Shown here: one piece after another, positions 1,169 to 35,350 of the stretch
Position numbering within the stretch: the stretch's first letter is position 1
How the letters are laid out: every line of letters starts with the position of its first letter
From: Octopus sinensis
Lineage: Eukaryota
Direction: 5' to 3'
Length of the DNA stretch: 64,000 bases
Assembly: GCF_006345805.1 (NCBI RefSeq)
Contig: NC_043011.1
Location: 10,788,001 to 10,852,000 of the forward strand
Notes under the pieces: generated by a model
What the model saw: only the letters and a program-made list of their open reading frames with translations
Told to the model about the DNA's origin: nothing
Databases searched by the model: none
Program-made: the position numbers and the translations under genes

Positions 1169-1589
1169 TAAAGTAACAAGGGTACAAAGTAGTACCAGTA
1201 TTGCTAGAAATAAGAGTCAGAACAACTCATTAGCCACACAAAATCTCAATTCTTGTCAGTGGATCTTACTGCACCTAGAGTTATGTTCAACTCACCTCGC
1301 CAACTTATGAGAAAAAAAACCATTGAAAGTATGTGTTGTCTCAAAATGGTAGATGTGTATACTATAAATAATGTAGGATCCACTGATGAGAATTGAGATA
1401 CCCTGCATCAGAATTCAAAATCACATGATGCGGGTATTTCTGCTATTTCAGTAAGGAGCTTTGTCTCAGTAAAGCAGAGCGCTCTGTCTCTCTCGTAAAC
1501 CTACTAAGATTGTGCTTTTTGTGGCTAATGAGTTGTTTTGACTCCTATTTCTAGCAATACTGCTACTACTTTGTACCCTTGTCACTTTA
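1169..1589. mobile_element. Fold-back element with ~70-bp terminal inverted arms, TATA box and degenerate hammerhead (PLE pseudo-LTR-like)
   Basis: 1169-1240 is the reverse complement of ~1517-1589; 1244-1268 mirrors 1374-1400; TATAAATA at 1363; CTGATGA at 1383 followed by a GAATT/AATTC stem and AAAA (decayed GAAA). Confidence 0.6.
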
Positions 1590-2214
1590 ACAATACGATT
1601 TTTAATCGAGATATCAACCTTTATTTATCCTTTTCAAACATATTTTTACCTCATGTAACTCTTATTTCTTTCTAAATAATATATAGATATGTTCCTTGTC
1701 TTCATGTAATTTTATATTATAACCCATGTTAGCATAGAAAGTGGACATTAAACAATGATGATGATGATGATGATGTATTTATTATGTTGATGTAAATCAT
1801 ACATATAAAATGATTATCTAAATTTTTGTTTCTTCATATACCATGTTATATATATATATATACATATATATGATAGACAGAAACTAAAAGAAGTCCATCA
1901 TATGTATATGTGTGTGTGTGTGCATGTATGGCTGGTTGCCTTTATGTATATGTGCATAAATGTAGTTGGGAATGTTTATATGTTTGTGTCTGCTTGTCTT
2001 GATGTCTACATAGCTGCAGGTACAATAAGCCATCTTAAAGTGAGTGAAGATTGCATTCTTTGAAAGAATTTGTGAAAGTCATAATTTGAATTCTGTATTA
2101 GTTAAGTGTTTCTAATGAAGACCAGTAATTAATGCAATTCAATATCTGTCATAAACTAATAAACTATAAAGATACTGAAGCATGATGTATCAATACTGAA
2201 ATGCTGTTGCTTAC

Positions 2215-2398
2215 CATTATTGATGCACTCATCAAAGCCTTGTTCTCGTAGGCATAGAGCAAAGATTTAAATAGTTCTGCTTTCTTCTCTTGGCTTCTGT
2301 ATTCACTTAATCTTACACTTTCTCCCACACCTCCAGTCATATCAACCATAGCATCACGAGATTTCCCTCCTGTTAGGGCTTCATAAGATCCAAACAAT
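2215..2398 (-). CDS. CAPN5: Calpain-5/TRA-3-like protease, coding exon 4 (LFGSYEALTGGKSRDAMVDMTGG...LMSASIM)
   Basis: Calpain CysPc motif GSYEALxGG..DAMVDxTGG; AG acceptor 2400-2399 and GTAAG donor at 2214; phase 2 matches the previous exon (AA+A=Lys). Confidence 0.9.
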
Positions 2399-2854
2399 CT
2401 ATCAAAATATTGACAGTGCATATAATTGTTTGTTACTTTTAGACAAACGAAAAAAATACAGAAGAGAGAGAAAATAGAATCTAATGATATTTATGCCTTT
2501 CCCAAAGTGTGTGTGTGTGTGTATTTAGGATGAACTGATGGATGGATGATTGAATGGACAGATGGTGGAAGACACACACACACACACACACACACATACA
2601 TAGGCAGATAGAGAGGTAGGTATAGAGGAAGGATTATTTAATTTAGAAACGTGAAGGTGAAGAGAATGTTTTAAAATTGATTAAATTGAATCAAATTTAA
2701 ATTTATATCAAAATGTTAAGATTAATTTCAGAAGTATGTTTGCCTTCAGATTATATTAATAATAGGTTGAAGATAACAAAAGAATACAGCTGAAGCTCTT
2801 TAAGAAACAAACATAATCCAATAATTCCTCATAAAAAAATAAAGCTGGTCTTAC

Positions 2855-3057
2855 TTTGCATATGCTTTCTCAAGTAAAGCACTCCAAAATTCATTCTTTG
2901 AAGTTGAATGAGCGAAAATAAGTTTTCCATTAATTGTTGGTAAAAGATCATCAACAACAACATCAACCCAGTCACCCATCTGCCAGAACTTGAAGTGGAA
3001 AATTCCTGCATATTTATTCTTAGGACTCCATTCCTGTTCTTCATAATCTGGAACAAC
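2855..3057 (-). CDS. CAPN5: Calpain-5-like, coding exon 3 ([41 protein letters not shown]...[14 protein letters not shown])
   Basis: Diagnostic GIFHFxFW..[13 protein letters not shown] and [14 protein letters not shown] motifs; the PDxxEQEW insert is characteristic of calpain-5/TRA-3; ttcag acceptor and GTAAG donor; 203 nt. Confidence 0.93.
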
Positions 3058-4353
3058 CTGAATACCAAAGACATTACATATGTATAAAACTAAGGCAACT
3101 TACTAATGAGGCCCAAAACTCGATGTCAGAATACCTAAAGGCTTTGGTTTGCCACAGTGTTGTGTAACAAATGTCAGTCCAGTAAATTTCATTGCAATCC
3201 AAGTTATTACTGCATCTCCACAACAGACTCACTCTAAATAGTAATCTTGCAGTAAGCCTTATGATACTGTCACCTGATGTGAAAGAATTGTTTTGTCAGA
3301 AGTGTAAAGTGTGCATGTGTGACATTTTTCAAAACCTCAAAGTCTGGGAATATAATGAGAGGGAGTAAGTGTCAAATAGGAGACTATCCAAAAGGCTTGC
3401 AATGGAATGGTCTGTGCCAAAGGCATTCAAAGGTCGTTTAGTGTAGTTAAACTGAGCAATGAATTCAACTTGTTATTTAAGAATTAAAAAAAAAACAAAT
3501 TGCTGAAAATTATCTATTTTAAGAAATACAGAATCATTTAAGTAAAATATTTTAGTTGGACAGCATGGAAAAGTGTAATTAAAATGAACAAATTTTGTTT
3601 GGGTGCAGTAGAGGAAATTTAACCCTTTCGAAACCGGATGAAAATTATCAAAATTCCAAAATTTTTAAAAACTGAAAATGTTTTATTTGATGAAATTCAG
3701 AATTTCTCAAATGAACAATTTACGGCTGTCTGGTCTTTGTTATAATGCAGTGGTGATAGCAGTATTTCAACTACTGACACTTCTAACAGACGTTCATATG
3801 CTAATCTACTCATAAAAGTGCAACTCTGAAGAAATTACTTAGTAGTTTCTCAGAGACATGACAATGTAGGTGTCTATAGAGGTGTGATGGTCATGTTTTT
3901 CTCAAGAGAATCAACATCAAGTAAATAGCTATCAGAGGAATGAAACCGTCTTCAGTTTGAAAAAAGCTTATGACTGTTCTACTATAGAACTGATGTTTAA
4001 GGAGAAAATATGTATAACTGAACAATATTGATTGTTGGTACTTGGTACAACTTATTGATGAGATAAGATGTACAGCTTTACTTCAGTCATCATCATCATC
4101 GATAATTGAAATTAGAATATAGAATTTTAAAACTGAAAGCAGTAATTTCAATGAGTAATGAACAGTATAAAATGTAGTTTTGATATCATACACATTGATT
4201 TTATCTTTCATTCATCCAGAACTGATATTATCATCATGTAACCTTACACATTTTTTGCCTATTTTTCGAAGAAAACAATAACAGCATCCATTAGTCTTAA
4301 ACTATCTCCCATTATCTTCAACATTACAATAAATGGGTTACATTTCATCTTAC

Positions 4354-4485
4354 CTTTTTCCATAGATCAGGGTTCTCAGCCACAGAAGCACAAGCTGCAA
4401 CAAACCAACAGTTTCCTAAACTGCCTTGTGCAAAATCTTCAGCACTTGCTGAGTCTAAAAAGAACTTGGGGTCCTCTGCAATATC
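4354..4485 (-). CDS. CAPN5: Calpain-5-like, coding exon 2 with catalytic Cys (DIAEDPKFFLDSASAEDFAQGSLGNCWFVAACASVAENPDLWKK)
   Basis: QGxLGNCWF active-site motif; ttgcag acceptor and GTAAG donor; 132 nt, phase 0/0; absent from the ORF track because it is short. Confidence 0.93.
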
Positions 4486-5125
4486 CTGCAAATAGGTTAA
4501 AGGGGTATCTTCTCAGAGTGCATTCAAGGAACAAGAAGTCTGGAAACCTTTCCAGCTCAAGTCAGCCAAATGGATATAAAACCAAGGAATGACAGTAGTG
4601 ATTGTGAGATGGGAGTAGTGCAGCTGACAATGATGAGTGGGGGATGATGTTGAGTATGACAATGGGAATGGTGATGGATGGTTGATGATGGTGATAGATA
4701 ATGAATGATGATCAATGAAGATGAGAATGATGATGATGATGATAACTACAGCAATGATGACAATAACGATGATTATAACGATCCTTTCACTGCATCAACA
4801 AGTCATGTGGAAACGACAATCCTCATCATCGAAATCATAACATTTGTGCTTCTCTTTGCACACAGCTAGTTTCTTCTTGAGTTTCCATGGCTTTTTGAAT
4901 CTTCCTGAAACTGGGATGCAGAGGTAATTAAGTGGAGTTAGAGGAGGCTTACATGCAGACTCAACTTCTCTAGCTTATGGGTTAGCAAGAAATAGTTCGA
5001 TGGAAGGTAATAGAACTTAGGTTCAACAAGTAGAAAGAATCAACTTTGTTTGGTTATCAGAACAGAATCAGTAATGGGAATCTAATGACTCCTCCCAAAC
5101 ACTAGCATAGCCAGAGTGTGTGCCA

Positions 5126-5581
5126 CCTTGCGAGCTTACACATGTCCTCAGCAGTCACAGCCCATGTTTCACTGCCATATAGCATGGCTGTTTGTACACA
5201 TGCCTCATACAGTTTACTTTCTACTCTGAGCGAGAGGCCTTTTGTCCCTAGCAGAGGTAAGAGCTCTCTGAACTTTGCCCAGGCTATTCTTATTCTAGCA
5301 GCTACACTTTCCGCACACCCTCCCCCACTACTGACTTGGTCACCTAGGTAACGGAAGCTATCAACTACTTCTAGTTTTCTCCATGGAATGTGACAGAAGC
5401 AGTTCTCTGCACATATTCAGTGTTTATTGCTCCTGGGCATCTTCCACATACAAAAACTATTTTCCTAGTTAGCCTTCCTTTCATATTGCTGCACCTCTTA
5501 TGTGTCAATAGCTTACACTGGGTACATCTTATAGAGTTTCTACCTATGCCTTTTCTACAGATCAAGCAGGGCCATCTACCT
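5126..5581 (-). mobile_element. RTE LINE fragment (PHD insert and RT C-terminus), degenerate
   Basis: ICRKGIGRNSIRCTQCKLLTHKRC..FVCGRC followed by VVDSFRYLGD; homologous to the larger copies. Confidence 0.85.
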
Positions 5582-6009
5582 AAAAAGTCACAGATTGGCT
5601 GACCGAAATTGCTAAGAGTTTTAAATTCTATCTGCTATTTTCCTAATATAGGTATTGCTGTTTCGTGGTTCACCCAGCCTCCCACCCTCACCACCAATAC
5701 TGGAAATCCCTGTCCTCTCACTCTCCACCACCAGTACCGGAAGTCCCTATCCTCTGACAGCTTTCACTTGTCTCTCATGAACACTTCTAAAGGCGTAATG
5801 CCATCCCCACCCCTACCTGGGGTCTATCTCCTATGTAAGGTTGTGATTATATAATGCATAAAAATGATGGTGTACTGCATGCAGGTTGAGGGCTGTTGTT
5901 TGTTTATGAATTCTGCCAAATGCGAGCTTTCTTTTCAGGTACATGATGCTGCTGTCCCCCATCTCAGGGTCACATGGGCTCACACCTCCCACACCCTCAG
6001 GGTTGGCTC

Positions 6010-6295
6010 AGGGTATGTCTGATGAGATTGTTGAGATGCTTGAACAGAGATGTGTAGATTTGTACTGCATCCAAGAAAGAAGGTGGAGAGGAGACTCTGC
6101 TAGGTTCCTCACAGGCAAAGAACATAGATACAAGATCTTTATTGGTAGGGAACACTGACAGGGTCAGGGGCATGGATATACTTCTTGCAGAGAAATGGGT
6201 CGATAAGGTAATTGAGGTAGTCAGAGTCTGCGATGGAATACTTAAGATTAGATTAGTGCTACATTATGGGTTAGCAACCACTATCTCGGCCTATG
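6010..6295 (+). mobile_element. RTE LINE AP-endonuclease fragment
   Basis: EIVEMLEQRCVDLYCIQERRWRG..GMDILLAEKWVDKVIEVVRVCD..TISAYG is an APE N-terminus. Confidence 0.75.
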
Positions 6296-6407
6296 GGGCT
6301 ACCTTGCCTAAACAGCCACAGTAGCCTGGGGTAGCCTTCTACCTGGCTGGCTCCTGCCAAACCATTCAACCCATACCAGCATGGAAGACAGATGTTAAAT
6401 GATGATG

Positions 6408-6444
<37 letters not shown>

Positions 6445-8479
6445 AAGAGAGAGAGAGTGAAGGGGAGATAGAAAAAATAGATGAATATAGAAAACATTTT
6501 ATTTGATATAAATACTATTTTGTAAGGAATATTTTGGGGCAATTTTAACATTTAACATTTTGACGATCTTGCTTTTAGAAATACAAGCTTGAATTACTGG
6601 CTAAATTCTATTTTGGTAAATTCTATTTTCTCATTTATTCTTCTTTACTAATTAACACTAATTTAATCTCCCGCCTCCTTCTCACTCACAATTCCATTAA
6701 TTTCCATCCCTCTCTCTCTCTCTTCAAACTCTTTCTCTCCTTTAACTACTTTATTTGTCTTCTCTTCAGAATTTTTATTGCGCTTTTATAGTTACTGATA
6801 AAAGATCTTTATAGACAAAGCTTCATGTGACCACTGTGTAACAAATCTAAACTCACTTCCCACTAATTCCCTTCATGATCTTACTTCAATTGGTTTCTTT
6901 TCTGCTTTTGTATTTTTGCCAGATTGTAACATCATGAGTTGCATGGACTCTAGGTCTTCTCTTTATTTTTTGTTTCTTGTTTTTAGCTATTTTTCAGTGT
7001 TATGCTATATTGCAAATGTTAATAAATGGTCTGTTAACTCATATTTAAACAGATTCAGTTATTTCCAATGCTTACACTATCAGAAATTTTCAAGTAGATT
7101 TAAATGTTGTGATAAGTGAAATATACTGGGTGTTAGATAACATTATAGTTTAAACAGACAAACAAGGAATACAGCTCTAAATTTTACTTCCTTACCATCA
7201 GTTATTGTCCTGGAAAGAAGTTGTGACAATTTAAGTGATAAATTTAAGTGACAGTTTAAGTGATAAATGTATATAAACTTGTATGATGTTAAATACTCCA
7301 TCCTAGATCATATGTTAAACCTATAAAATATTCTTAACGTAATTTTTTCCTATTATTTTGTTCAACATTCTGAAAGCAACAGATGAATGAATAAGTAAAA
7401 CTCATAAGTAAAACTTGCTGTTGTTTTTCACTTTCTCTGTATCTGTGTGTGCATTTATTGAAAAACCAGATACATCTGAGATGATTAATTAAATAAGACT
7501 TCTTGAAATCTCAGCTCATTAATATTACTGCAACAATTTTACAACCACTGACCCAGTCACCACCAAAACCATCAAGCAACTCACAAATATTATTTTTCTG
7601 TTTTATCTAAAATTACTAACAAATTCTAGACCAACCACTTGTAGCTGGCTATGTTTCTATAAATAACTCTTCTACTGGGATGGGCAAAAGTAATATATTG
7701 AACAGGTGATACTCTTGAATTATTCATCAATAAACTCATTACCAACTGAAACCTGTGTTTAAACCCAAGCCATAACTGATCAAGAATTACAATCTGAAGT
7801 TTTCCAGCAGTAAATATACTGTCTTTTTTTTTTCCTTTCAAAACTTGCATACATAGAACTATATTGTTCAATGTATCTGTTCTTTTAAGACTATAAGGAA
7901 ATGTGCCAGCCATTTCTAACTAGTCATGAGGCTGTGTAGTGGCACCTTAATTGTAGTTGTGTTCATGTGGGCCCCGGTGGCCTAGGGCTCAGAGACACTT
8001 GTTAGAATAACTGTGATCTACAGACCAAGTGTTCCAGACTTACAGCCACCACAGCACACCTTCCGAAATGCAGTTATTGATCATACTGCACATTGCAACA
8101 TGCAATCATATGACATGCAGTGTTAAAGTGTCAACATGGCGTTATAGTAGAGGATTTGGTTGTTGTAGATGTGTCTGTTTATTTAGGGGTCATTCTACAT
8201 GTAGTGGCAAAGGTTTTAAGTGATGGAGTTTACTGCAACAACAAACTTTAGCCCTTGCAACTGGTCTTCTGAATTGCTTTTCTTTCATTATGTATGTGGT
8301 CTACAAGTATCGTAGATGTAAAGAAGACAGTGTTGTAGGAGTGCACACAGCATGTGTACTACAGCAGTACTATGCATAGTTTAAATACTGAGATTGAAAA
8401 GCAGGGGCGAATCATGCCTAACTAATCTACAAAAAAGTAAAATATTTTGCATTAGAATTCTGAGTAGAAATATGTAATC

Positions 8480-8870
8480 ACCAGGGATCAGTCCTCAGCC
8501 CCCTCTTATTCATTATAGAACTCAAGGCAATAACATAGGAATTCAAGACAAGCTGCCCCTGGGAGTTTCTCTATACTGATGATGTTGCTCTAATAGCTGA
8601 GTCACTGTCAGAACTGGAGACGAAGTTTAGGGTGTGGAAGCAAGGTCTAGAATCGAAGGGCCTTAGGGTCAACCTTGCAAAAACCAAAGTCTTAGTAAGT
8701 AGGAAGGCTGTCAAATCATGACTTCCTTCAGGTAAATGGCCCTGCTCGATCAGTAGAAAAAGCATAGGTAGAAACTCCATATGGTGTACTCGGTGTAAAC
8801 TATGGACACATAAGAGGTACAACAATACCAGAGGAAGGTTAACAGGGAAAATAGGTGTAATGGAGATATT
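8480..8870 (+). mobile_element. RTE LINE RT fragment, degenerate
   Basis: HQGSVLSPLLF..CPWEFLYTDDVAL..KTKV..WPCSI; same family as the other RTE copies. Confidence 0.8.
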
Positions 8871-8934
8871 GTATGTAAATGGGTACATTCTGGAAAGGGG
8901 CTGCAATGGTAAATGGCAATGGGGAAGTGAACTG

Positions 8935-9245
8935 GCTTCAATAACATGTAGCATCATCTTCTTTACCACCAGGCGTGCCCCATTGCAGAGTGTTGGTGTA
9001 TCCAAATTCCTCAATAAAGTTCCCACTTTAAGTTCCAATTTGTGGGAAGGCAGCCCTGGAGGCTCCAATGAATTGAAAAATTCTGTTAGATAATTTATCA
9101 CCTCTTCTGGATCTGGGACTGTATCAACTAACTTATAGAGTTGAAGACTTCCAGGAAGGTACTGCAGCAGCTGCCCATTAATTTTACTTACAGTGCTGTG
9201 TTTTGGAGCCAGTATTGCTCTTTCACACAGCCAATTGAGATTGTG
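8935..9245 (-). mobile_element. Helitron PIF1-helicase fragment
   Basis: WLCERAILAPK..YKLVDT..NYLTEFFNSLEPPGLPSHKLELKVG..LLRNLD..LCNGARL is the Helitron helicase C-terminal region. Confidence 0.8.
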
Positions 9246-12734: not shown

Positions 12735-12777
12735 AACACGTTTCGGCTGATATACCCTCCAGCCTTCATCAGGTGTC
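12735..12777 (-). ncRNA. Minimal type I hammerhead ribozyme motif (canonical core)
   Basis: gacac CTGATGA a ggctg gagggtatat cagcc GAAA cgt gtt: intact core and 5-bp stem II; 3' side slightly eroded. Confidence 0.7.
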
Positions 12778-13510: not shown

Positions 13511-14148
13511 TTAGGTTGGCAACTAAGTTCCCGCTGTTTTTTTAAATTTAAATTTTTTTAAAGGTTTAATAAAAAATAACAACAATAATGTATTCACCCT
13601 TGTTGTTTACAACTTCTTCCCAACTTTCAACAAGATTTTCAATACCTAGTTGGTAGAAGTCACCCGATTTCGACTCGAAAAATTGATCCAGCCAATCTCT
13701 CAATTCTGCAACAGTATTGAAAGAAACTCTGTGCATAGCATTTGAAAGAGATCGAAAGAGGTGCCAAATCAGAAGAGTATGGCGGGTATTTGTAGCACTT
13801 CCCAGCCATGCGTTTGAATGGCTTCCTTGGACATATTGGTGATATGAGCACGGGCGTTGTCATGCAGCAGAAGAACTCCATGCTGCCGATTAGGTCTTTT
13901 CTCTTGAATAGCCATGTTGAATCGTTCCATCTGTTGAACATAGAGTTCCATGTTGACCGTTTAGTTCCGTTCAAGCAATTCGTAATGGATAATCCCTTCT
14001 CAGTCTCACCATACGCACAACATCATTTTATGTGGATGAAGATCTTGTTTCATGTGCAGTGTTGCTTGTTTACTGGGGCTAAGCCATTCCTTACGCTGCT
14101 TCATGTTGATGTTCAGGCACCATTTTCTGTTACCAGTAACAATTTGTC
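13511..14148 (-). mobile_element. Mariner transposon, 3' half with one TIR, degenerate
   Basis: TA followed by TTAGGTTGGCAACTAAGTTCC TIR; transposase motifs IVTGNRKW (decayed TGDEKW), LLHDNARAH, PPYSSDLAP; ends at the RTE junction. Confidence 0.85.
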
Positions 14149-16690: not shown

Positions 16691-16727
16691 CTAAAATTTT
16701 CGTTGTAACTTGCAACCTTTTCAATAG
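16691..16727 (-). ncRNA. Minimal hammerhead motif, U3-A8 core variant
   Basis: cta TTGAAAA g gttgc aagtt acaac GAAA at TT tag. Confidence 0.6.
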
Positions 16728-17803
16728 TCATTGACTCTGTCCATTATCTGAGCTGCATCCGTTTTGTTTGTTTGTGCGCATGTGTGTGGGTCAGTGTGTG
16801 TGTGCACACATGTATGTATGTACATACATATGTATGTATGCATGCATGCAAGTGTGTGTATGCATGTATATGTGTGTGTATACCTGTGTCTCCTTGTGTG
16901 TGCATGTCTGAGGGTGCCTGTGTATGGTTTTTTTGTGACTATATAATGTGTCTGTATGTATAGATGTGTGTCTCGATTTGAGTCCTTGTGTGAAGTGAAG
17001 TGTGTGTGTGTGGTCGTGTGTTTCAGTCTTCATTTGTGTATGTGTGTGTATGTGTGCTTGTCTGTTTTTATTACCTATGTACCTATCTGTCTGTATGTCT
17101 ATCTGTTCACTTTCATATCCATTTGCCTACATACATGTACATATACACATGCACACCCACACACATACATTTACATAACAATTCACTAACTATTCTACCT
17201 GTATATAAATATAAACTGTGGGTATTGGGGTAAGAATACCTACTACGTATATTTCCTATTTAGTACTGGGGATGTTTCATTTATGAGGATGTATTCCTGT
17301 ATTTGACTGAGCGTTGGGCCCTTTGGGTGCTTGGATAAAATGCAGATGTCAAGTTAACCCAGGTTGCCTCCATATTGGTCCTTGGCATATTGGTAGAGTA
17401 TAGAGGACTGTTTTTTATTGTCATATTGTCTCAAGTGTTCATTTAGTCTTTCGACAATGCTCCTAGATATCTCTATGTATGTCAAGCACCTTCTATGCAT
17501 CTTATGCTGTAGACTACATTTCTAGTTCTACAGTTAATGCCAGGGCTAATCCTACATACCATGCAGTTATCATTGGTGCATATGGCATTCTCAAAATGGT
17601 ACATCCTACATAGTTGTGATCTGATGGAGTTCCCTGGCTTTTCACCAATCTTAATGTTGAGTTCGAGCTTTCCTAAATCTACAGGTTAGTTCTCCATGGG
17701 CTGTGGCATACAAACATATATGTGTATGCGTGCACACACTGACCCAAACATGTGCACAAACAAACAAAAAGAACGCAGCTCAGCTAATGGACAGTATCAA
17801 CAA

Positions 17804-17841
17804 CTATTGAAAAGGTTTGTAAGATGCAACGAAAATTTTAG
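17804..17841 (+). ncRNA. Minimal hammerhead motif, U3-A8 core variant (inverted arm)
   Basis: cta TTGAAAA g gtttgt aagat gcaac GAAA at TT tag. Confidence 0.6.
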
Positions 17842-17919: not shown

Positions 17920-19170
17920 TATTTATAATAATAAATCAAACATACAGTCTACAAACAAGTGAGAAAATTAAAGGGGAGGAAGTGAGGTGTTATAAGTCCG
18001 ACAGCTGTTTCTGGGGGGCTTGAAGATGCATTATAATGTTAGCCTCTATCATCAGCTCATAATGCAGAGAAGGTCAAATGTGGAATGATTAAATGTGGAG
18101 ATTAAGCAGAAATTAGAGGAAGTAGGAGGGTCAGTCAGTTTTTGGGGAGTGTCAAGACAGAGAATGGTGAGAAGAAATAAGAGAGCTAGTTCAGGAAGAG
18201 GGAGGGGGTTAATAATGTGGATGTTAAGAGTGGTGGTAGTAGAGGTGTAGAGTTGGGGGATAAGTGGGAAGGGTGGGATAGATAGTAACTGAAGGGGGGG
18301 GGGGGGTCAACTATTGTTGGGTTTGTGTATAGGTGTCAAAGTTTAGGGATTATTACTGGTAGAATTATTACTAGTAGTTGAGATGGTGGGAAAAGGAATG
18401 CCAATTATTTGAGGGAGGGAGGGAAAATGTCTAATTTGATAGTGGAGGGAGATTACTAAGGTGTCTAGAAAGGTATGAGAGAAGATAGAGGGAGATGGAC
18501 AGAGTGGGGAGTGAGTCAGTGTTCAAGGTAGCAGTGAAGGGTGGTGGAGGAGGAGTGCTGAGGTATGCAGAAGTGTATGAAATTGAATAGGAGAAGAATA
18601 GAGAGGGGAGAGATTGATAGATTAGTGATAGATAGGTTGAGCAGGGTAGTTGTGATTTTGGTTGAAGAGGAGAAATGACAGAACAGGGAAAGAAAACGAC
18701 CTGAGGCAATGAGTGGGATGGAATATGGTGGGTAATAGGAATTTGCAAAGGTAATCATGAGAAGGAATAATTTAATAGAAAGGGTGGTTATAAGTGGAGG
18801 AGGTAAGTTGCTAGGCTGACCAAGTTGTACCCCAATGTTAATTATAATTAAGGATAATCATAGTTATGGGATAACATAGATTTGGGCAAATGATGAGTAG
18901 AATCTGTATTCAGAAACGATTATTACATCTGAGAATTTGTTAAGTGATGAGGGGTTGTGTAAAGGATGGTTAGCAGTGGTTCCCTTAAACACAATTTACA
19001 GATGCTGAGGTTTATTTTGTATGGGGGAGCCTCACTTACAATAGACCAGAATAGGGTACAGGGAACATTTGGGGATTTGAGATTGTGTGTATAAGTTGCT
19101 AAGGAGGTAGAAAATTTAGAATTTGGACTGGAAAAAGATTTCAGGTGTGCTTGGTAGTGACACTTGAAAC
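17920..19170 (-). mobile_element. Degenerate Penelope-like element 3' part (GIY-YIG C-terminus, pyrimidine-rich 3' UTR, hammerhead at 17996-18058)
   Basis: FKCHYQAHLKSF..STSLATY..WSIVSEAPPY..CKLCLRE is a PLE endonuclease tail; CTGATGA...GAAACAGCTGTC near its 3' end. Confidence 0.7.
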
Positions 19171-19907: not shown

Positions 19908-20007
19908 NNNNNNNNNNNNNNNNNNNNNNNNNNNNNNNNNNNNNNNNNNNNNNNNNNNNNNNNNNNNNNNNNNNNNNNNNNNNNNNNNNNNNNNNNNNNN
20001 NNNNNNN
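19908..20007. other. Assembly gap (100 N)
   Basis: Run of N flanked by CT-rich repeats. Confidence 1.
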
Positions 20008-20911: not shown

Positions 20912-21196
20912 TAGAGTACAACAAACAAGACTAAGTCTTAATTATCTAAATGTCACATCATTAAATATGTAAAACACACACATTGTGGTACAGCTGCTTA
21001 CTTGTGTATGGATATATAAACTTGTGTAGTATTGGAGTAGAAATATATATATATATATATATATTAATAAAAGGAATTCCAACCTTGTCTGATTTTCACG
21101 TTTTATTTACAATCTTATAATGATATATTATAAGATAATATATTATAATTGAATAAAATAAAATGAAATAGTAGAATGTTAAATGTTCATTCTGAT

Positions 21197-21241
21197 TGAA
21201 CTAGTACTTTCATGCATTGAATTCTGCAATCTTCGGGTTCA
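21197..21241 (-). ncRNA. Minimal hammerhead motif, U4C variant (inverted arm)
   Basis: Reverse complement of 24578-24622. Confidence 0.7.
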
Positions 21242-22204
21242 TGTAGTAGTGGTGACAGTCATGCTTCACAATTTTTGACTGTAGCAAGATGATTGATTCT
21301 GTGCTATAAATACAGCTGGGTAGGCTCCAGAGTGCTAGGTTTTGCAAACTGTATTCTGACCAATCAGTGTGTATCACTCATTACTTAAGCTGATTGATTG
21401 GTTGGTTGAGCTGATTGTTTTAGGCATCACGCTTTGTTGGACATGTCAAGAGTCCTGTATCTTGACCCTGGCCGAAGCAGCAATTGTTGGTTATTTTTAG
21501 AAATGTTGTAAATATCCTTTGTCAGAGATTTTTATATTTTTATATTTCAATGTCATCATCATCATTGTCAGCACCTTAATTATTGTTGCTAGTGGTGATG
21601 GTGGTGGCAATAGAACTTTTAACCCTAAATAAGATAATTTTCCTGCTATCTTCATCTTGATCACCTTTAGTATTGTTGTTGTTGTTAGTGGTCATGGTCG
21701 TAGCAGTGAAAGTAGTACCTCTAAGTATTATTATTATTGCTTATTTAGCTTGGGTTTGAATTTATCAATAAAATTATTTTCTCTGATTCTCCTCTCGATT
21801 TCACTTGGGCTGTGTAATTTGTAGAACGGAAATATTATATACATTTTCCGGCCACATGTTGCTAGGTGTTACTCAAAGTATCTGACGGACCTCTGGGTCT
21901 CTAATCTGTTGTCGGTGTACACGTGAGCATTCTGATAGTGCATTTCCCATCTGACCTACATATATTTCTTCACAATTTGGGCATTTGATGCAGTAAATTA
22001 AATTTCTGCTTTTGCAGTTCATATTCGCGTTTGTGAATATTTTCCCGGTTTTTGTGTTTATATATTGACTGGTATGTATGAATTGGCATGTGCCACATCG
22101 GCTATCATTGCATTTAGATACCGTGAATGTTTGGTCTTTGTTGCTAAGGTCAAATTTTGCCTTTGTTAGTAATGTTTTCAAGTTTTTAGGCTGTCTTTTA
22201 CTAA

Positions 22205-24083
22205 AACGATCAAACAATAATAATTAAACAAGCAGATAAAGGTGGTGCAATTGTTATTATGGATACCGAATACTATAAGGATTTGGTTGAAGACCAACTG
22301 AAGGATACAACCTTCTATTGTGAAATACCCGCAAATATAGACCACCACATCATGAAAAAGATCAACAACCTGATCTCAACACACCACAACTCACTTACAG
22401 ATAATGAAAAAGACTACATCACCAATTTCGAACCAAAACCCAGCAACTTCTACGGCTTACCAAAAATACACAAATCAAAAAATATTCAACAGGCAGTAAA
22501 AGAACAAGAAAGTGAGTACATAAAATTACTACATCCAAAAGACCTAAAACTTGGACCTATTATAGCTGGTCCAGCATGCCCTACACACCGTCTAAGCAAT
22601 TTTATTGACATTGTTTTGAAACCACTATGTACTTACATACCCAGTTTCATCGGGATGACATCGACTTCCTGTCTCATCTTCCCAAAACAACAGAAACAAA
22701 TTCAGTTTTACTAAGTTTTGATGTGGTAAGCCTCTACAACCAATATTCCACACGATTAGGAATAAAGGCGATTAAATACTGGTTAGAAAAACATAGAGAA
22801 GTGATTCCTAGCAGATTCACAGTGCCATTTATATTAGACACAGTCAAACTTATTCTAGAAAATAACACATTCTTCTCTCAATGGAAAGAATTACATCCAA
22901 ATTAGAGGCACGGCGACGGGAACGAGTTTGCTCCCGTTTACGCCAACTCTGTAATGGGATACTTAGAACAACAACTCTACCAAGAGGTGGAGGTAAACTA
23001 TGGCACTGGATTTAGAAAGTATATTGAATAGGCATGGAAGAGATCCTAGACGACTGCTTCATAATCTGGACAGAATCTCTAAATACTCTGGAAGAGTTCA
23101 ATATCCTCCTGAACAACCTACACCCATCTCTCCAATATACAAAGGAGATGAATAGTACCAAATTACCATTCCTAGATATAATGGTAATTAAAAAAGACAC
23201 CACCATCACCACAGCTATATACTATAAACACACAGACACACATCAAAATTTTAAGTCGTGCCATCCACCACATACAAAACGTAACATCCCATACTGCCTA
23301 GCCAGAAGAATTTGTACCATTGTAGAAGATGCAAATATCAGGAACAAACGCCTAATAGAACTAAGAGAATTTTTGCTCAAACAAAAATACCCATCTCTAC
23401 TTATAGAAAATGGCATACAGCGGGCTATAAAAATACCCATACAACAACTTAGGACACCCAAGGAAGAAGGAAAACAAGAACAAGTCATACCATTCATAGT
23501 GACACACAACCCATGTCACCAGAATATCTTCAACATTGCCAAAGCAAACCTACCAATCATTGCCCAAAGTAATGAATTAAAAGACATAATCACGGATCGA
23601 GCTATGGTGCTTAGTAAAAGACAGCCTAAAAACTTGAAAACATTACTAACAAAGGCAAAATTTGACCTTAGCAACAAAGACCAAACATTCACGGTATCTA
23701 AATGCAATGATAGCCGATGTGGCACATGCCAATTCATACATACCAGTCAATATATAAACACAAAAACCGGGAAAATATTCACAAACGCGAATATGAACTG
23801 CAAAAGCAGAAATTTAATTTACTGCATCAAATGCCCAAATTGTGAAGAAATATATGTAGGTCAGATGGGAAATGCACTATCAGAATGCTCACGTGTACAC
23901 CGACAACAGATTAGAGACCCAGAGGTCCGTCAGATACCTTTGAGTAACCACCTAGCAACATGTGGCCGGAAAATGTATATAATATTTCCGTTCTACAAAT
24001 TACACAGCCCAAGTGAAATCGAGAGGAGAATCAGAGAAAATAATTTTATTGATAAATTCAAACCCAAGCTAAATAAGCAATAA
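22205..24083 (+). pseudogene. PLE RT/GIY-YIG ORF with several frameshifts (ORF pieces 22259-22714, 22627-22905, 23034-24083)
   Basis: Contiguous PLE motifs across frames; the breaks I inspected look like 1-nt deletions (e.g. WKR[F]LDD). Confidence 0.9.
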
Positions 24084-24399
24084 TAATAATACTTAGAGGT
24101 ACTACTTTCACTGCTACGACCATGACCACTAACAACAACAACAATACTAAAGGTGATCAAGATGAAGATAGCAGGAAAATTATCTTATTTAGGGTTAAAA
24201 GTTCTATTGCCACCACCATCACCACTAGCAACAATAATTAAGGTGCTGACAATGATGATGATGACAATTGAAATATAAAAATATAAAAATCTCTGACAAA
24301 GGATATTTACAACATTTCTAAAAATAACCCAACAATTGCTGCTTCGGCCAGGGTCAAGATACAGGACTCTTGACATGTCCAACAAAGCGTGATGCCTAA

Positions 24400-24515
24400 A
24401 CCAATCAGCTCAACCAACCAATCAGCTTAAGTAATTGAGTGATACTACACACTGATTGGTCAGAATACAGTTTGCAAAACCTAGCACTCTGGAGCCTACC
24501 CAGCTGTATTTATAG
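24400..24515 (+). promoter_or_regulatory. Candidate PLE pseudo-LTR promoter (CCAATCAG x2, CTGATTGG, TATTTATA)
   Basis: Three CCAAT boxes followed by a TATA-like box about 65 nt upstream of the hammerhead; AATAAA at ~24711. Confidence 0.5.
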
Positions 24516-24577
24516 CACAGAATCAATCATCTTGCTACAGTCAAAAATTGTGAAGCATGACTGTCACCACTACTACA

Positions 24578-24622
24578 TGAACCCGAAGATTGCAGAATTC
24601 AATGCATGAAAGTACTAGTTCA
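24578..24622 (+). ncRNA. Minimal hammerhead motif, U4C variant
   Basis: tgaac CCGAAGA t tgca gaattcaa tgca t GAAA gtac TA gttca: 5-bp stem I, 4-bp stem II, palindromic AGTACT stem III. Confidence 0.7.
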
Positions 24623-24799
24623 ATCAGAATGAACATTTAACATTCTACTATTTCATTTTATTTTATTCAATTATAATTATTATCTTATAATATATCATTA
24701 TAAGATTGTAAATAAAACGTGAAAATCAGACAAGGTTGGAATTCCTTTTATTAATATATTCTTCTATACACAATCACACACACCCATATATATATATAA

Positions 24800-24961
24800 A
24801 GTTAATCCAAACAAGAAAACAAAAAAACACAACAACGCAAGGACGTGGAACAAATAAAGTATTATTGGACGCTCAGGAAAGAAGGAGGGTTTAATGTTTC
24901 GAGCGGAGCTCTTCGTCGGAAACATAGGAGAAGGAAAGATCCCGAGAAGGGAAGACAGAGG

Positions 24962-28101: not shown

Positions 28102-28133
<32 letters not shown>

Positions 28134-29015: not shown

Positions 29016-29121
29016 ATCACTACAATTGTTTGCACGCAATGTAGTTCACCAGGCATGCAAATACTAGATTATGCAATTGTTTCCCTGCATCACGAGAACT
29101 AGTTGTGTTTCCTCAGGTGAT
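29016..29121 (-). ncRNA. Hammerhead motif with long stem II region, G12 decayed
   Basis: atcac CTGAGGA ...~77 nt... cAAA caattg TA gtgat: perfect 5-bp stem I, palindromic ACAATTGT. Confidence 0.55.
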
Positions 29122-29216: not shown

Positions 29217-29262
29217 GTCTTACAGCTGTTTCTAGGATTAATTATATCCCTTCATCGGAGAT
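29217..29262 (-). ncRNA. Minimal hammerhead motif, U4C variant
   Basis: tct CCGATGA aggga tataattaa tcct a GAAA cagctg TA aga. Confidence 0.65.
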
Positions 29263-29771
29263 GGTGTGAGAGGATAGTTAAGTCATAGTTAGTTTAGATG
29301 TGATACAAAATACAGATTGAGGTGGAGGAAAGAAAATAGATGCAAGATATGTATGGGTATTGAAGTTGTAAATCCATTTTTTAGGCATAATGGTATATAT
29401 GCAATATTCCAATATCCTATGAATAAAGTCCAAAAGTCCAACAGAGTTTAAAATGAGTCCATCCAAATATAGAGTTCATAAGCAATGTAAGATTCCCTTA
29501 GGAGTGAGATCCTGCAGATTTTTAAACTTGGTTATTCCCAGTAGAGAATTTATATAGAGTGTTGTAGAGTCAAAGGTTTGAGACAGCCTTGCTTCTTTAA
29601 TTTCATTACGCAAAAAATTCTTATATACACACGCTGACATAGAAACAATGTTGAACCCTTTATTCGCAATATTACCAAATCTGGAACTTAACTATGGTCT
29701 GTCTATAGCATTACCTGACACCTTTGGGTTTCAATGATACCATTATCTCTTATCTCTTATATATATATATA

Positions 29772-32137
29772 TCACTTGTGCTAAATGAGGATACAAAGAG
29801 AGAGGTATGGAGACGCCACTATGAAAGGTTGCTGAATGAGGAAAATGAATGGGATAAAGAGAGTCTGCCGAATGTCGACCCAACAGAGGGACCAGCAATC
29901 CGAGTTGACAGTTCCTTAGTAGTTAAGGCAATTACAAGCATGAAAACAGGGAAAGCCCCAGGCCCATCAGGAATTACTGCAGAGATGCTCAAAATATCTG
30001 GTAGTGTCGGCTATAGCCTAGTCACCCGTATAGTTAACCAGGTGATACACGAAGGAGTCATACCCAATGACTGGTGTAGCAGCATAATAGTCAACTGCTA
30101 CAAAGGTAAAGGTGGTGCCCTAGATACAAATAACTACAGGGGTATCAAGCTGCTGGATCAGGTAATGAAGGTTACGGAGAGGGTTATAGCCCAACTAATT
30201 AGAGAGAGAGTTAGCTTAGATCAGATGCAGTTTGGGTTCGTGCCAGGGAAAAGTACTACTGATGCTATATTCCTGGTGAGACAGCTGCAGGAGAAATACC
30301 TAGCCAAAGATAAGCCCCTGTACCTGGCTTTTGTTGACATGGAGAAAGCCTTCGACAGGGTCCCCCGATCCCTTATCTGGTGGTCAATGAGGAAACTAGG
30401 GATAGATGAATGGTTAGTGAGAGCTGTGCGAGCCATGTACAAAGACGCTGCTAGTAAGGTAAGGGTTGGCATCGAGTACAGTGAAGAATTCCGGGTAGAG
30501 GTTGGGGTCCACCAAGCTTCAGTCTTCAGTCCCCTCCTATTTATCATAGTCCTCCAGGCAATAACGGAGGAATTCAAGACAGGATGCCCCTGGGAGCTCC
30601 TCTATGCTGATGACCTTGCTCTAATTGCTGAGTCACTATCAGAACTGGAGGAGAAGTTTCAGGTGTGGAAGCAAGGATTAGAATCGAAGGGCCTTAGAGT
30701 CAACCTAGCCAAAACCAAAGTCCTAATAAGTAGGAAGGTAGACCAATCACAAACGACTTCAGGTAGATGGCCTTGCTCGATCTGTAAAAAAGGTGTAGGT
30801 AGAAACTCTATAAGGTGCACCAAGTGTAAGCTATGGACACATAAGAGGTGCAGCAATGTCAAAGGAAGGCTAACTAGGAAAATAGTTTTTGTCTGTGGCA
30901 GATGCTCAGGAGCAATAAACACTGAAAATGCACAGAGACCAACTTCCACCACATTTCAGAAATAGTTGATAGCTTCCGTTACCTAGGTGACCAAGTCAGT
31001 AGCGGGGGTGGGTGTGCTGAAAGTGTAACTGCTAGAGTAAGAATAGCCTGGGCAAAGTTTAGAGAGCTCTTACCCCAGCTGGTGACAAAATGTCTCTCGC
31101 TCAGAGTAAATGGCAGACTGTATGATGCATGTGTACGTACAGCCATGCAACATGGTAGTGAAACATGGGCCGTGACTGCTGAGGACATGTGTAAGCTCGC
31201 AAGAAATGAAGCCAGTATGCTCCGATGGATGTGTAATGTCAGTGTTCATAATGACAGAGTGTAAGTACCTTGAGAGAAAAGTTGGACCTAAGAAGCATCA
31301 GTTGTGGTGTGCAAGAGAGACGTTTGTGCTGGTATGGTCATGTGGCGAGAATGGCTGAAGATAGTTGTGTGCAAAAGTGCCACACCCTAGTGGTTGAGGG
31401 AACCTGTGGAAGAGGTAGACCCAGGTGGTGAAGCACGACCTTCGCACTTTAGGTCTCACCAAGGAAATGACTAGAGACCGAGACCTATGGAAATATGCTG
31501 AGCGTGAGAAGACCCGGCAAGACTAGTGAGACCATAACCCGTGGCCTCTACCTGGTATGTAGCCAGTCGACTTATACATACCTTTCCTTCTTGGGACACA
31601 AAACTCCACTTGTGAAGACCCGTTGAGGGAAGTGAAAATCAAAATCAAAATCAAAATCAAAATCAAAATCAAATCAAATCAGATATCAGAAAGCAGAACC
31701 AAAATCGAAGTCGATCAACATTAATGGAAATTGCGGCTGTGATACCAGTGCCGGTGACAAGTAAGCGAACCATTTGATCATGGCCGTTGCCAGCGCCGCC
31801 GTGACTGGCCTCCGTGACGGTGACACGTAAAAAGCACCATCCGTTCGTGGCCATTGCCAGCCTCGCCTGGCCCCCGTGCCGGTGGCACGTAAAAGCACCA
31901 TCTGTTCGTGGCCGTTTGCCAGCTCCGTCTGACTCCTGTGCGGGTGGCACGTAAAAAGCACCCACTACACTCGTGGAGTGGTTGGCGTTAGGAAGGGCAT
32001 CCAGCTGTAGAAACACTGCCAGATCATACTGGGCCTGATGCAGCCTTCTGGCTTCACAGACCCCAGTTGAACCATCCAACCCATGCTAGCATGGAAAACG
32101 GATGCTAAATGAAGATGATGATGATGATGATGATGAT
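29772..32137 (+). mobile_element. 5'-truncated RTE LINE containing the whole RT domain, inserted in a (TA)n run
   Basis: ORF 29724-30965 MKTGKAPGPSGI..NYRGIKLL..QFGFVPG..FVDMEKAFDRV..LYADD..PHD; (GAT)n tail; (TA)n on both flanks. Confidence 0.95.
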
Positions 32138-32148
32138 ATATATATATA

Positions 32149-34539
32149 CTAGCAGAATTGCCCGGCGATGCTCGGGGCTGAATTGCTTGAAAGTACTGTT
32201 AATGATTGCACTGAATTATGATGATTATTCAGGCAAATATTGATATAAGCTTACGGTGGGAGATAAGGACTTAACGATCAAACGTGTGCCATTGCATTGT
32301 TTTGGCGGAACCAAATTTCTAATGAGCATTATAGGGGCACCAACTTTAAGTTTGAGAATGTGTGGTGGTAGTCCGGTGGGGCTCAAAGGAATTGAGTACC
32401 TCTATTGGATAGTTGATGACGTCCTCTGGGTCAGGAGTTGTATCGATAGACTTATATACATAGACATCCCCAGGAATGAGTTTTAGAATTTTATCATTAA
32501 TATGGTGAACAGTTTTATTCCTCGGGGCTAGAATAGCCCTTTGGCCAATCCAATCCATATTCTGATAATTAGCTTGTAGATCTGGGAACACTGCATCTCT
32601 GAGATCAGAAGGCGTTTTAACAATGGTACAAATGGAATCGATAGCAATATTACCATTTTCATCCCCTGGTATTTTGCCTTCGCCAAGTGCAAGGAGGGTG
32701 TGAGAAAATGCTGCTGATGTGATATTACGTCGCATATGAGCACGCATATTGGTGTGAAGTTTGAGAGTCTTCACCAGTGGCCACAATGTGGATGACTTAA
32801 GACACGCACTTACTGCATCAGTTCTAGTCCCTTTGGGAATAACAGGAAGTGTTTGTCGGAAATCCCCTGAAAGAAGAAGTGTTATGCCACCCATGGGAGC
32901 TGAAGAGTGTTTGATGTCTCTGAGAGATCTATCTAGTGCCTCAATAGCACCTCTGTGGGCCATCGTGCATTCATCCCAAACGATAAGCTTGCATCGTCTG
33001 AAGACTTCTGCCTGATCGGAGCTGTTACTGATGTTGCAAGTTGGTGTCTCAGTCTTCGCTAAGTCAAGCGGAAGCTTGAAAGTGGAGTGAGCTGTCCTGC
33101 CGCCTGGCAACAAAGTAGCCACAATTCCAGATGATGCCACAGCTAGGGCAATGCCTTGTGTTCGTCTAATCTCAGCCAATATTAATTTGTTGAGAAAAGT
33201 TTTCCCAGTGCCCCCAGGAGCGTCCAGGAAAAATATCCCCACAGCTTTGGCCCGGACTGAATTAACAACGGAGTTGTAAGCGAACTTCTGTTCTGGAAGG
33301 AGCTTTGGCTCATTGTCGGCTATGTACTCGACATTAAAACATGTCTCACGCAACAAATGTGAAGACAGAGTGTTTGTGCCTTCCCGGTTTGTTGAAGGTA
33401 GGCCATAGACCGGCAAGGCACTACCGCCCATATCAAGTACAGTATCTTTGAACGTAGTTTGTTACCACACAGCCACACCTGCTCCTATGTATATGTGTGT
33501 GTGTGTGTATGTACATGTGTGTGTATGGGTAGATATATTATGCATGTATATATGTGTATATATATATATATATATGTGTACATATTACATGTACATCTAT
33601 ATATATATATACATCTACACATAAAATACAAAATAGAAAGTTATATCTTGATATCGCTAGTGATAACAATACTCAAAATATATAACAGACTGGAATTGTA
33701 GGCCCGTCTCTTGCAATTTCGATCAATTGGATCTTGTCTCCCTCTTGTATAGAAGTGTACGGCTGCAGCGAAATTCATTTTTGGACTTTCTTCTATCGAA
33801 GGCATTTTAACAAAAATGCTTCCGTAAAGACGGCGAAAATATTGTCAATTTCCCCAAAAAGGGACACAATTCAATTTGAAAACAATAACGAAAGCCCCTT
33901 CTCCGAAAGGGGGAGGGTTACGATTTACAATTATTTAACAAATGCAACACAACAACGTTTCCCTGACGAGGAACCAACAAACGTGATTACAATAGTCAAA
34001 CAGTAATAATAATAACAACAAACCTTTTTAATGTATCCCCATTTATGTGAAACCACTTATTCAAGTTCAAGTCATTGATGCAATTTTATACGAATTGCTA
34101 ATACACACACACATAATAAGGGTGAAAAATTGAATATTAATTTGATTAATATGAATTGAAATCCAGTGGTGTAGCATATAAGATCACAGCGGATCTTCTT
34201 CTAGCAAAAAGGATGACCAGTATTAATTGCTCATCCCTTTTATATAAATACTTTCACTTTAATTGTTGCACACTTGCAAAGGAGAAAGGAGGAGAAAGTG
34301 TAGTGGTAATGGTAGGAGTGAAGCACTTGAAATGAAAGAGGGAAATCGTAAAATATTTACTTTTCTCGAATTTTTGCTTAATTGGGGGTGAAATTGAAAA
34401 AACTTTACATGCTACGACCCAATGGAATCTACTTGTAAAAATGATAGGTAAATTCCAATTGAAGAAATTCTATATTGTAGAATTGTATAAAAAAACGAAC
34501 AGTTTGGGAGGCAGAGAAAATCTGCCTTTTATCATAAGA
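32149..34539 (-). mobile_element. Internally deleted Helitron with PIF1 helicase segment
   Basis: 3' CCCG..CGGG hairpin plus CTAG at 32149-32152; helicase ORF; candidate 5' TC terminus at 34539 like that at ~36469; linkage of the two halves across 33460-33620 is uncertain. Confidence 0.7.
32346..33431 (-). pseudogene. Helitron PIF1-family helicase fragment (361 aa open)
   Basis: FLDAPGGTGKT (Walker A), AVASSGI, GRTAHSTFKLP, IVWDECTM, GDFRQTLPV, RAILAPRN; no Rep domain. Confidence 0.93.
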
Positions 34540-34934
34540 CTAGCAGTATCGCCCGGCGTAGCTCGGGTTTGTAAGGGAAATAATTATATAAGCATTTTTA
34601 GAGATGTAAAGTATAATAGCCATCTCAATATGGCTAACCACAAAGGGGGAGGGGTGTTACTGTAGCTTTTTACGTTCTGAGATTTAATAATAAATTTTAG
34701 AGAGTTACTTCCCTTATATATGTCAAAAATGGATTAAAAATGGGAAAAATTGATGGTAAATTTTTTTTTAAATCGTAGACTCATCGTAGACGCGCGCTAA
34801 TACCCAGACGGTCTCGATATGAATCACGACTATAAGATACCCGGTTTTGGTTAAACTGCACTGCAAAATGTGGGAGTAGTTAGGAATCTAAATCGTAGGA
34901 GACAGACACACAACCTCACTTTTATATATAAAGA
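34540..34934 (-). mobile_element. Non-autonomous Helitron (395 bp)
   Basis: Minus strand A|TCTTTATATATAAAA...CCCGAGCTACGCCGGGCGATACTGCTAG|T: 5' TC, 3' hairpin + CTAG, AT target, no TSD. Confidence 0.85.
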
Positions 34935-35028
34935 TTTCCTCTATTTACATAATATTGAGGTCTCTTTCTTTCTTTTGTTATCTTACTGTTTTTACCAATA
35001 TACATATATATATATAATATATATATAG

Positions 35029-35350
35029 TTACAGAGATGTACTTGCATAGCAAGTGACTTGATCTGAGATCGTGTGCTGGAACGAAAACAGTTGCAGCGT
35101 TGAAGGTGTTTATAAGCCATTTAAGAAACACACAAAAACCGTTAGATTCACTTCAACATTTAAATTTAATTTGTCAAAATATTTTCGTCGCTTTGAGACC
35201 GCGACCTGTGAGCACGATATTTTTGTCAGTGAACAGGTCGCAGTCTCAAAGCGAGGAAAATATTTTGGCAAATTAAATTTAAATGTTGAAGTGAATCTAA
35301 CGGTTTTTGTGTGTTTCTTAAATGGCTTACAAACACCTTCCACGCTGCAA
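35029..35350. mobile_element. Palindromic fold-back element (arms 35092-35209 / 35233-35350) carrying a hammerhead variant, flanked by (TA)n
   Basis: ~118-bp near-perfect inverted arms; extension on one arm only (35029-35091). Confidence 0.85.
35222..35272 (+). ncRNA. Minimal hammerhead motif, G3-C8 core variant
   Basis: tttgtca GTGAACA g gtcgc agtctcaaa gcgag GAAA atat TT tggcaaa; the opposite arm supplies the perfect gcgac and tgacaaa. Confidence 0.7.

Follow-up and report, generated by a model that had tools for sequence, protein, structure and literature searches.

Alternative core pairs in minimal hammerhead motifs of Penelope-like elements in an octopus genome

Minimal type-I hammerhead ribozymes have been described in Penelope-like elements (PLEs) by Cervera and de la Pena (2014, PMC4209133), with a short stem I, a palindromic mini stem III and a spare base after A9, which together with a G10.1-C11.1 pair belongs to the >80% consensus. 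They lie in the pseudo-long terminal repeats (pLTRs), mostly as solo or inverted copies and in thousands per genome, depend on dimer formation and have low activity (PMC4209133). Families with a U3-A8 pair between core positions 3 and 8 are published, with ~1,300 matches in Schistosoma (PMC4209133, PMC3088659), and natural U3-A8 covariation was likewise described by Perreault et al. (2011, PMC3088659), in whose text as compared here U3-A8 is the only variant named at these positions. The reversed pair is known from laboratory mutants, in which engineered C3G/G8C partly restores cleavage (PMC11167929, PMC8495972, PMC3884650). For a PLE hammerhead, C3G/G8C gives partial rescue, cleavage is protein-assisted and uncut RNA is the template (PMC11167929). 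PLE hammerheads are poor cutters, insertion in vitro does not require them (PMC11167929), and some successful clades lack them (PMC8557442). Here we describe the hammerhead motifs in a 64,000-nt stretch of the Octopus sinensis genome (NC_043011.1, positions 10,788,001 to 10,852,000, hereafter the window), together with their relatives at other loci (L numbers). Three alternative Watson-Crick 3-8 pairs are found in at least two PLE lineages of this genome, among them a G3-C8 pair.

The octopus motifs agree with the system of PMC4209133 in their type-I order, short stem I, palindromic stem III, spare base, pLTR location, solo or inverted copies and U3-A8 families. They differ from it in several respects. 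The G3-C8 family and cores with C at position 4 are both absent from the 56 representatives in the text of its Fig. S3. A 1x1 mismatch at the base of stem II recurs in at least six clusters here, whereas one of those 56 has an extra A before GAAA. Our genome-wide pattern gives ~53,000 matches above control, compared to 2,000-9,000 per genome reported there. In contrast to the engineered C3G/G8C mutants, the G3-C8 core is natural here, and fixed in a family of at least 5,500 copies. A literature search for natural G3-C8 returned engineered mutants only, and neither a G3-C8 family behind a PLE frame nor a recurrent mismatch at the stem II base was found in print, with Lunse 2017 (for both) and Przybilski and Hammann 2007 (for G3-C8) outside the comparison. 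An earlier reading of the window from its letters, hereafter the original prediction, had suspected a large uncounted ribozyme system. The size is borne out, but the system, its dimer logic and its U3-A8 covariation were already in print (PMC4209133, PMC3088659). What appears to be new is a natural G3-C8 core that is linked to a PLE frame and present in high copy number, together with the recurrent swaps, a wobble family and the mismatch class.

The genome is a 2.72-Gb animal genome, microsatellite-rich and with many decayed transposons. All 11 sites of the original prediction are present in the window with cores and palindromes as stated there. It had counted about 12 motifs from unrelated repeat families in one layout; sites, cores, palindromes and the family-level layout stand, and the count becomes 11 sites in nine repeat families, some of them related. 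Its coordinates were the low end of each motif, and families are named here by the start of the core. Each family is multi-copy in the genome (40 to 3,017 first-look candidates per family). The sites 21197 and 24578 form an inverted pair within one insertion, as do 16691 and 17804; the families of 16691 and 35222 (16724 and 35229 by core start) are parts of related PLEs. Two partial sites were added, at 1259 and in a core-less arm at 35170-35213, both on the minus strand. The motifs are as follows.

24578..24622 (core 24583), plus strand: hammerhead motif, C3-G8 with C4, U-U mismatch at the stem II base, 6-nt palindrome, A17; ~500 nt behind the PLE frame, in sense; intact in 15 of 16 aligned rows
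21197..21241 (core 21236), minus strand: 24583-family motif inside the inverted copy
35222..35272 (core 35229), plus strand: hammerhead motif, G3-C8, spare G, 6-nt AU palindrome, U17; of a subfamily with a G-G mismatch at the stem II base
35170..35213, minus strand: inverted arm of the G3-C8 element, in which the core has lost its first half to other sequence while a perfect stem II, the palindrome and stem I' are present
35029..35350, no strand: terminal-repeat fragment of the G3-C8 PLE family, duplicated head to head and flanked by (TA)n tracts
16691..16727 (core 16724), minus strand: hammerhead motif, U3-A8, spare G, 4-nt palindrome, U17; ~530 nt behind the GIY-YIG remnant, in sense
17804..17841 (core 17807), plus strand: U3-A8 motif again, as an inverted copy whose stem II has gained one base
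29217..29262 (core 29258), minus strand: hammerhead motif, C3-G8 with C4, A-A mismatch at the stem II base, 8-nt palindrome, A17
29016..29121 (core 29116), minus strand: hammerhead motif, C3-G8, with an extended stem II domain and an 8-nt palindrome; C stands in place of G12 in this copy
24889..24923 (core 24919), minus strand: hammerhead motif, C3-G8 with C4, spare A, decayed palindrome
17996..18058 (core 18055), minus strand: hammerhead remnant, C3-G8, 8-nt palindrome, internal deletions
12735..12777 (core 12772), minus strand: hammerhead motif, C3-G8, spare A, 3 nt missing after the palindrome
1378..1435 (core 1383), plus strand: decayed hammerhead motif, C3-G8, no spare base, 10-nt palindrome in the family
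1240..1267 (core 1259), minus strand: truncated inverted partner of the 1383 motif

Each family was aligned from 9-30 loci, a sample biased toward copies closest to the window copy. In these alignments all nine families have the layout of a type-I minimal hammerhead, with a stem I of just 2 bp in the 18055 family. The core N3-Y4-G5-A6-N7-N8-A9, the G12-A13-A14-A15.1 stretch and U16.1-H17 follow in type-I order in all nine (the window copies 1383, 29116 and 12772 being damaged), and so do a Watson-Crick 3-8 pair and a palindromic stem III of 4 to 10 nt with predicted duplex energies from +2.2 to -12.9 kcal/mol. The spare base, which had been called usual, follows A9 in four families; in four others one nucleotide is left unpaired on each side at the foot of stem II, and one family has none. 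The G10.1-C11.1 pair is present in five families, with a mismatch at that place in the other four. The stem II inserts of the 29016-29121 and 17996-18058 families, ~70-75 nt, are far longer than usual for minimal hammerheads.

Within the window the layout is complete or nearly so at five sites (24583, 21236, 16724, 17807 and 29258), and six copies are damaged compared to other family members. At 1383, GAAA has become AAAA and position 17 is G. The G12 to C change at 29116 is found likewise in 11 of 16 aligned rows. Stem I' at 12772 is lost through the 3 missing nucleotides and is intact in locus L181, and the palindrome at 24919 reads ACAT, compared to ACGT in loci L045, L026 and L229. At 18055 the internal deletions removed the 5' side of stem I. 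The copy at 35229, with its G-G mismatch, lies inside an inverted duplication that folds into a hairpin of -92.5 kcal/mol. Most window copies are likely dead passengers.

For the whole genome, a pattern made of the core, a purine, G, 9-18 nt and CGAAA was run with all 16 combinations at positions 3 and 8 and with a reversed-pattern control for each class; position 4 could be C or U in the C3 patterns and had to be U in all others. C3-G8 gave 36,643 matches (control 1,869), U3-A8 14,506 (3,513) and G3-C8 8,383 (1,338), the excess quoted above being that of these three classes for one architecture only. A3-U8 is at background (1,107 against 2,340), and so are the mismatched classes, with 8,112 against 6,715 for C3-other, 6,301 against 7,266 for U3-other, 5,676 against 7,516 for G3-other and 6,911 against 7,141 for A3-other. 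It should be mentioned that the reversed pattern is without the CpG of the pattern itself and hence overstates chance, as in the A3-U8 ratio of 0.47. Among the matches listed there are at least four U3-A8 families and one G3-C8 superfamily with several loop variants. Five A3-U8 candidates, four of them look-alikes with a stem II hairpin, were rejected, since neither palindrome nor stem I is present in them. The covariation of positions 3 and 8 is seen across the whole genome. It had been proposed from the window, where C-G, U-A and G-C pairs are indeed seen, but where the U-A and the G-C pair each came from a single family; the comparison across families and the genome now supports it. As also predicted, a search for CUGANGA only misses most of these motifs in the window (seven of 11), and about half genome-wide.

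The descriptor of a second search demanded stems I and II, Y4-G5-A6, A9, GAAA, the palindrome and UH, with positions 3 and 8 unconstrained. In 400 kb, taken as 40 arbitrarily placed 10-kb stretches of the genome, it found eight matches, seven of them Watson-Crick (five C-G, one U-A, one G-C). The reversed DNA gave one match and no Watson-Crick pair, and 20 shuffles gave 0-3 matches (mean 0.75) with 0-2 paired. Seven paired matches per 400 kb scale to ~48,000 genome-wide, with a wide error, and the window is denser than the average with five matches in 64 kb. In the flanks of 139 search loci, the centres being left out, there were 17 distinct matches, 15 paired, against none in reversed DNA. 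Altogether, 139 descriptor matches in 1.06 Mb form 23 clusters: 16 C-G, four U-A, one G-C and two unpaired singletons. This set is enriched for the searched families and its clusters are related rather than independent, the chance of pairing being 0.27 for each. Given the alternative 3-8 pairs, the self-cutting fold is likely kept by selection, and selection on catalysis, as originally predicted, is an inference.

The G3-C8 family has 5,532 exact matches when positions 3 and 8 are left free; among the first 100, 92 are G3-C8 and eight carry a single change. Its copy at 35229 is a young head-to-head duplicated fragment, and fully paired natural copies are found at L036, L037, L039, L198 and L207. 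By following the sequence upstream, two loci were reached, L233 and L234, in which the motif lies in sense ~1.9-2.2 kb behind a reverse transcriptase (RT) end and GIY-YIG domain, across a microsatellite-rich tail; two other loci of the 61 held unrelated PLE frames. The domain matches (GIY-YIG in L234, E 0.0023; RVT_1 in L233, E 0.056) are both under the curated cut-offs. The closest relative here of this PLE frame is that of the U3-A8 family of 16724. Locus L211 was rejected as a parent of the family, being a tandem-duplicated chimera of an L205-type PLE frame fragment and a core-less 3' part of the G3-C8 repeat.

It is noted that in loci L213-L234, ~25 nt upstream of the G3-C8 core and behind (CATA)n, a branch-point-like word, a pyrimidine tract and CAG are followed by ATG. 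Many truncated copies start just after this stretch, which may be the 3' end of an intron in the 5' untranslated region (5'-UTR), by analogy to Drosophila Penelope. An old C3-G8 family (L235-L238, L147) resembles the G3-C8 motif in stem I, spare G, stem II and AU palindrome and is possibly a sister lineage; four of its copies have no PLE frame within 2.3 kb, and the homology is a guess.

The connection to PLEs is provided by the following features of the window and by two intact relatives, L210 and L205.

21043..24797, plus strand: PLE insertion, with a direct part 22203-24797 and an inverted 5'-truncated copy 21043-22204, which is the element's 3' end; 96-97% by blastn to the full-length L210; inverted repeats
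22205..24083, plus strand: broken PLE frame in three pieces (22205-22714, about 22645-23043, 23028-24083) with DKG motif, RT, CxxxxCxxC linker and C-terminal GIY-YIG; frameshifts
17252..17676, minus strand: what is left of the C-terminal GIY-YIG part of a PLE, with 42-47% identity to the G3-C8-family frame (tblastn E 5e-23)

Pfam at E 0.001 missed both window frames, and their identity was settled via L210. In this near-complete PLE, a pair of direct repeats that both carry the motif lie 4.27 kb apart and enclose frames of 467 and 728 aa; the latter (L210:2191-4374) matches RVT_1 (E 2.7e-6) and GIY-YIG (E 2.3e-5). L205, with U3-A8, has a 748-aa frame matching RVT_1 (E 5.5e-8) and GIY-YIG (E 2.7e-4). 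PLE frames accompany the 24583 family in eight of 13 loci and in L210, GIY-YIG remnants or PLE frames accompany the 16724 family in seven of 14 other loci, and the 24919 family has a PLE frame in one of 11 (L141). The motif is thus placed in sense behind an RT/GIY-YIG frame, and in tandem copies also in front of it, for four of nine families (24583, 16724, 35229 and 24919), and for these the predicted PLE origin stands. As a separate observation, L205:1319-4516 holds an open RT/GIY-YIG frame and many inverted pairs 2-5 kb apart, and may be recently active; at least three further U3-A8 families have L205 and L208 among their loci.

The order of endonuclease-bearing PLEs, RT followed by a C-terminal GIY-YIG, is seen in L210 and L205. 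Partial tandem pLTRs are present in L210, and inverted 5'-truncated copies in the window (21043-24797), L205 and L233; the arrangement of pLTR, open reading frame and pLTR with an inverted copy, as in L210, is known for PLEs (PMC8557442). The Neptune and Nematis clades (PMC8557442) share with the octopus elements this domain order, a zinc-finger-like linker, pLTRs, an inverted 5'-truncated copy and (TA)n targets. Compared by eye to Fig. S2 of that paper, the linker is long and Neptune-type in L210 and L205 and short and Nematis-type in L234, a resemblance rather than a placement in a tree. Non-LTR (long terminal repeat) retrozymes (bioRxiv 10.64898/2026.07.22.740005) likewise carry type-I hammerheads in non-coding PLE-derived repeats. 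They are, however, tandem arrays with a hammerhead per unit, and none of 61 TRF (Tandem Repeats Finder) rows covers a window motif. Direct repeats 1.2-1.3 kb apart in L033 and L038 were rejected as retrozyme arrays, since they include flanking DNA and look like local duplications.

The frames also place the core pairs relative to one another. L210 (C3-G8) and L205 (U3-A8) have frames 47% identical, and L234 (G3-C8) goes with the U3-A8 of the 16724 family. Because these two related frame pairs differ in core pair while the L210/L205 and L234/16724 groups barely align (E 0.056 and 0.002), the frame comparison indicates that the 3-8 swap happened more than once.

Considering the layout, the covariation and the PLE frames, we propose, as a probable though not assured reading, that the motifs are minimal type-I hammerheads in PLE terminal repeats, dispersed for the most part as truncated copies, that in the parent elements the RNA is cut slowly after two motifs pair, and that the 3-8 pair is kept by selection. 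Transcription through tandem or partial-tandem elements would bring two motifs together, and their palindromes would form a shared stem III, as in the dimers of published work on other PLEs. The 3-8 pair would then close the active core, and a slow, probably protein-assisted cut after position 17 would process the RNA. Dimer formation, low activity and help from the element's protein are carried over from that work by analogy. The inserted copies would be made from uncut RNA, so that the cut would serve RNA processing rather than the making of insert ends; it would trim a tandem or read-through transcript, in L210 at a point ~210 nt before the first Met. Uncut RNA as the template (PMC11167929) agrees with the motifs being intact and with the lack of ends at the cut site.

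Several observations weigh against this proposal. In the G3-C8 family 35 copies start and one ends at the predicted cut site, which is no enrichment, and 17 of the 35 share one upstream word, pointing to deletion between inverted arms. The AU palindrome of this family pairs weakly (-0.2 kcal/mol), and G3-C8 is one lineage, hence one event. Damaged subfamilies were also amplified, as seen in the 35229 duplication, the G12C of the 29116 family and the shortened 12772. The PLE link is weak for the 29258 family (two of 14 loci) and the 18055 family (one of 11), and the 1383, 29116 and 12772 families have no PLE frame within 1.5 kb (0/14, 0/14 and 0/9 loci), so that the predicted PLE origin of these three is suggested by resemblance. 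Contrary to the expectation that core and stems outlast their flanks, the core is not visibly better conserved within four families, in query-biased samples; such an absence would arise anyway if copies decay neutrally after insertion. Finally, a family of at least 202 copies has a U3-G8 wobble: by eye, 76 of the first 100 are U3-G8, 23 U3-A8 and one G3-G8, with no C3; 21 of the 23 U3-A8 copies share one loop variant. The descriptor missed this family because of a stem I mismatch. A strict 3-8 rule, which 21 of the 23 clusters follow, is broken by it; either the wobble is a tolerated intermediate, or the elements can do without catalysis. No report of natural U3-G8 was found apart from one UUGAAGA core in Fig. 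S3 of PMC4209133. The family is found at L239, L240 and L241 (contig C1:22016880-22017300 and two more), with many inverted pairs up to 5.9 kb apart.

The best-surviving alternative, which we nevertheless judge unlikely, is that elements retain the motif for its fold, as an RNA signal that binds the PLE protein, dimerises two RNAs or acts around the 5' splice acceptor and start region, and that cutting is incidental. Insert ends that ignore the cut site would fit such a signal, as would insertion in vitro that is unimpaired by hammerhead mutants (PMC11167929), the splice-acceptor-like stretch and ATG ahead of the G3-C8 core, and the spread of damaged and wobble subfamilies, although damaged subfamilies can be mobilised in trans. 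The 3-8 pair, however, forms only in the catalytic conformation (PMC3884650), and G5, A6, A9, GAAA and UH are common to families with unrelated stems; the descriptor requires these bases, yet its matches exceed the controls.

We consider it improbable, more so than a folded signal, that the hammerheads are hitch-hikers or relics without benefit and that the three pairs arose by drift through tolerated intermediates. PLE clades without hammerheads do thrive (Craig 2021, PMC8557442), the U3-G8 family could be such an intermediate, and an excess of conservation within families is missing; but drift leaves the 21 of 23 paired clusters and the lack of any enriched mismatched class unexplained, and going from C-G to G-C needs two transversions.

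An Rfam scan of the window gave no hammerhead among 80 matches at E<=5, and folding energy alone does not set the motifs apart (z from +0.4 to -2.5 for all six folded motifs), as expected because stem III is formed only by two copies together. This Rfam silence, the ordinary single-strand energies and the failure of half of the window copies under a strict descriptor might suggest that an AT-rich, repeat-rich genome yields the motifs by chance, but this is refuted by the reversed and shuffled controls and by family alignments that restore the layout where window copies are damaged.

The mismatch at the base of stem II defines a second class. A 1x1 mismatch replaces G10.1-C11.1 in the clusters of 24583 and 29258, two clusters in L095, and those of L127 and L223; by alignment the 18055 and 29116 families carry it too. 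It always occurs with a 6-8-nt palindrome. Other long-palindrome families have the G10.1-C11.1 pair and no spare base, and the spare base is found in families with a short palindrome. The mismatch is fixed in the 24583 family, which is young (copies 99-100% identical). We tentatively suggest, at rather less than even confidence, that the G3-C8 hammerhead is the first of its kind known from nature and that it is active and fixed throughout thousands of copies, that its C3-G8, U3-G8 and U3-A8 relatives trace the exchange of the pair, and that a long palindrome lets the second class tolerate the stem II mismatch. If true, the recurrence of such compensatory changes in different PLE lineages would be proof that these elements depend on the catalytic fold, though cut RNA is not copied. 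Natural core swaps in related autonomous elements of one genome are a comparative argument for selection on an active fold, and the natural variants are a ready construct set for testing the role of PLE hammerheads. Ribozyme censuses of large animal genomes are likely low, given the share of the motifs counted here that CUGANGA searches miss.

The remainder of the window fits a repeat-rich setting. A run of 100 N at about 19900-20000 is an assembly gap, and a 107-nt tandem repeat (2.7 copies) lies at 35716-35996. Frames at 38407-39249 and 55937-56353 have a cysteine knuckle and no Pfam match. Several copies of one RT family of the long interspersed nuclear element (LINE) type, with a PHD-like cysteine cluster, lie at 14140-15114, 25703-26182, 29709-30965 and 46470-47849; the frame at 29709-30962 matches RVT_1 and PHD, and 62-68-nt tandem repeats are found near these copies. 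Two inverted, decayed LINE copies with endonuclease and RT pieces occupy 48400-58200. PIF1-like helicase fragments on the minus strand (32346-33461 and 8571-9254) are probably Helitron remnants, and a mariner-type transposase frame of 337 aa (62886-63899, minus strand) matches Transposase_1 and HTH_48.

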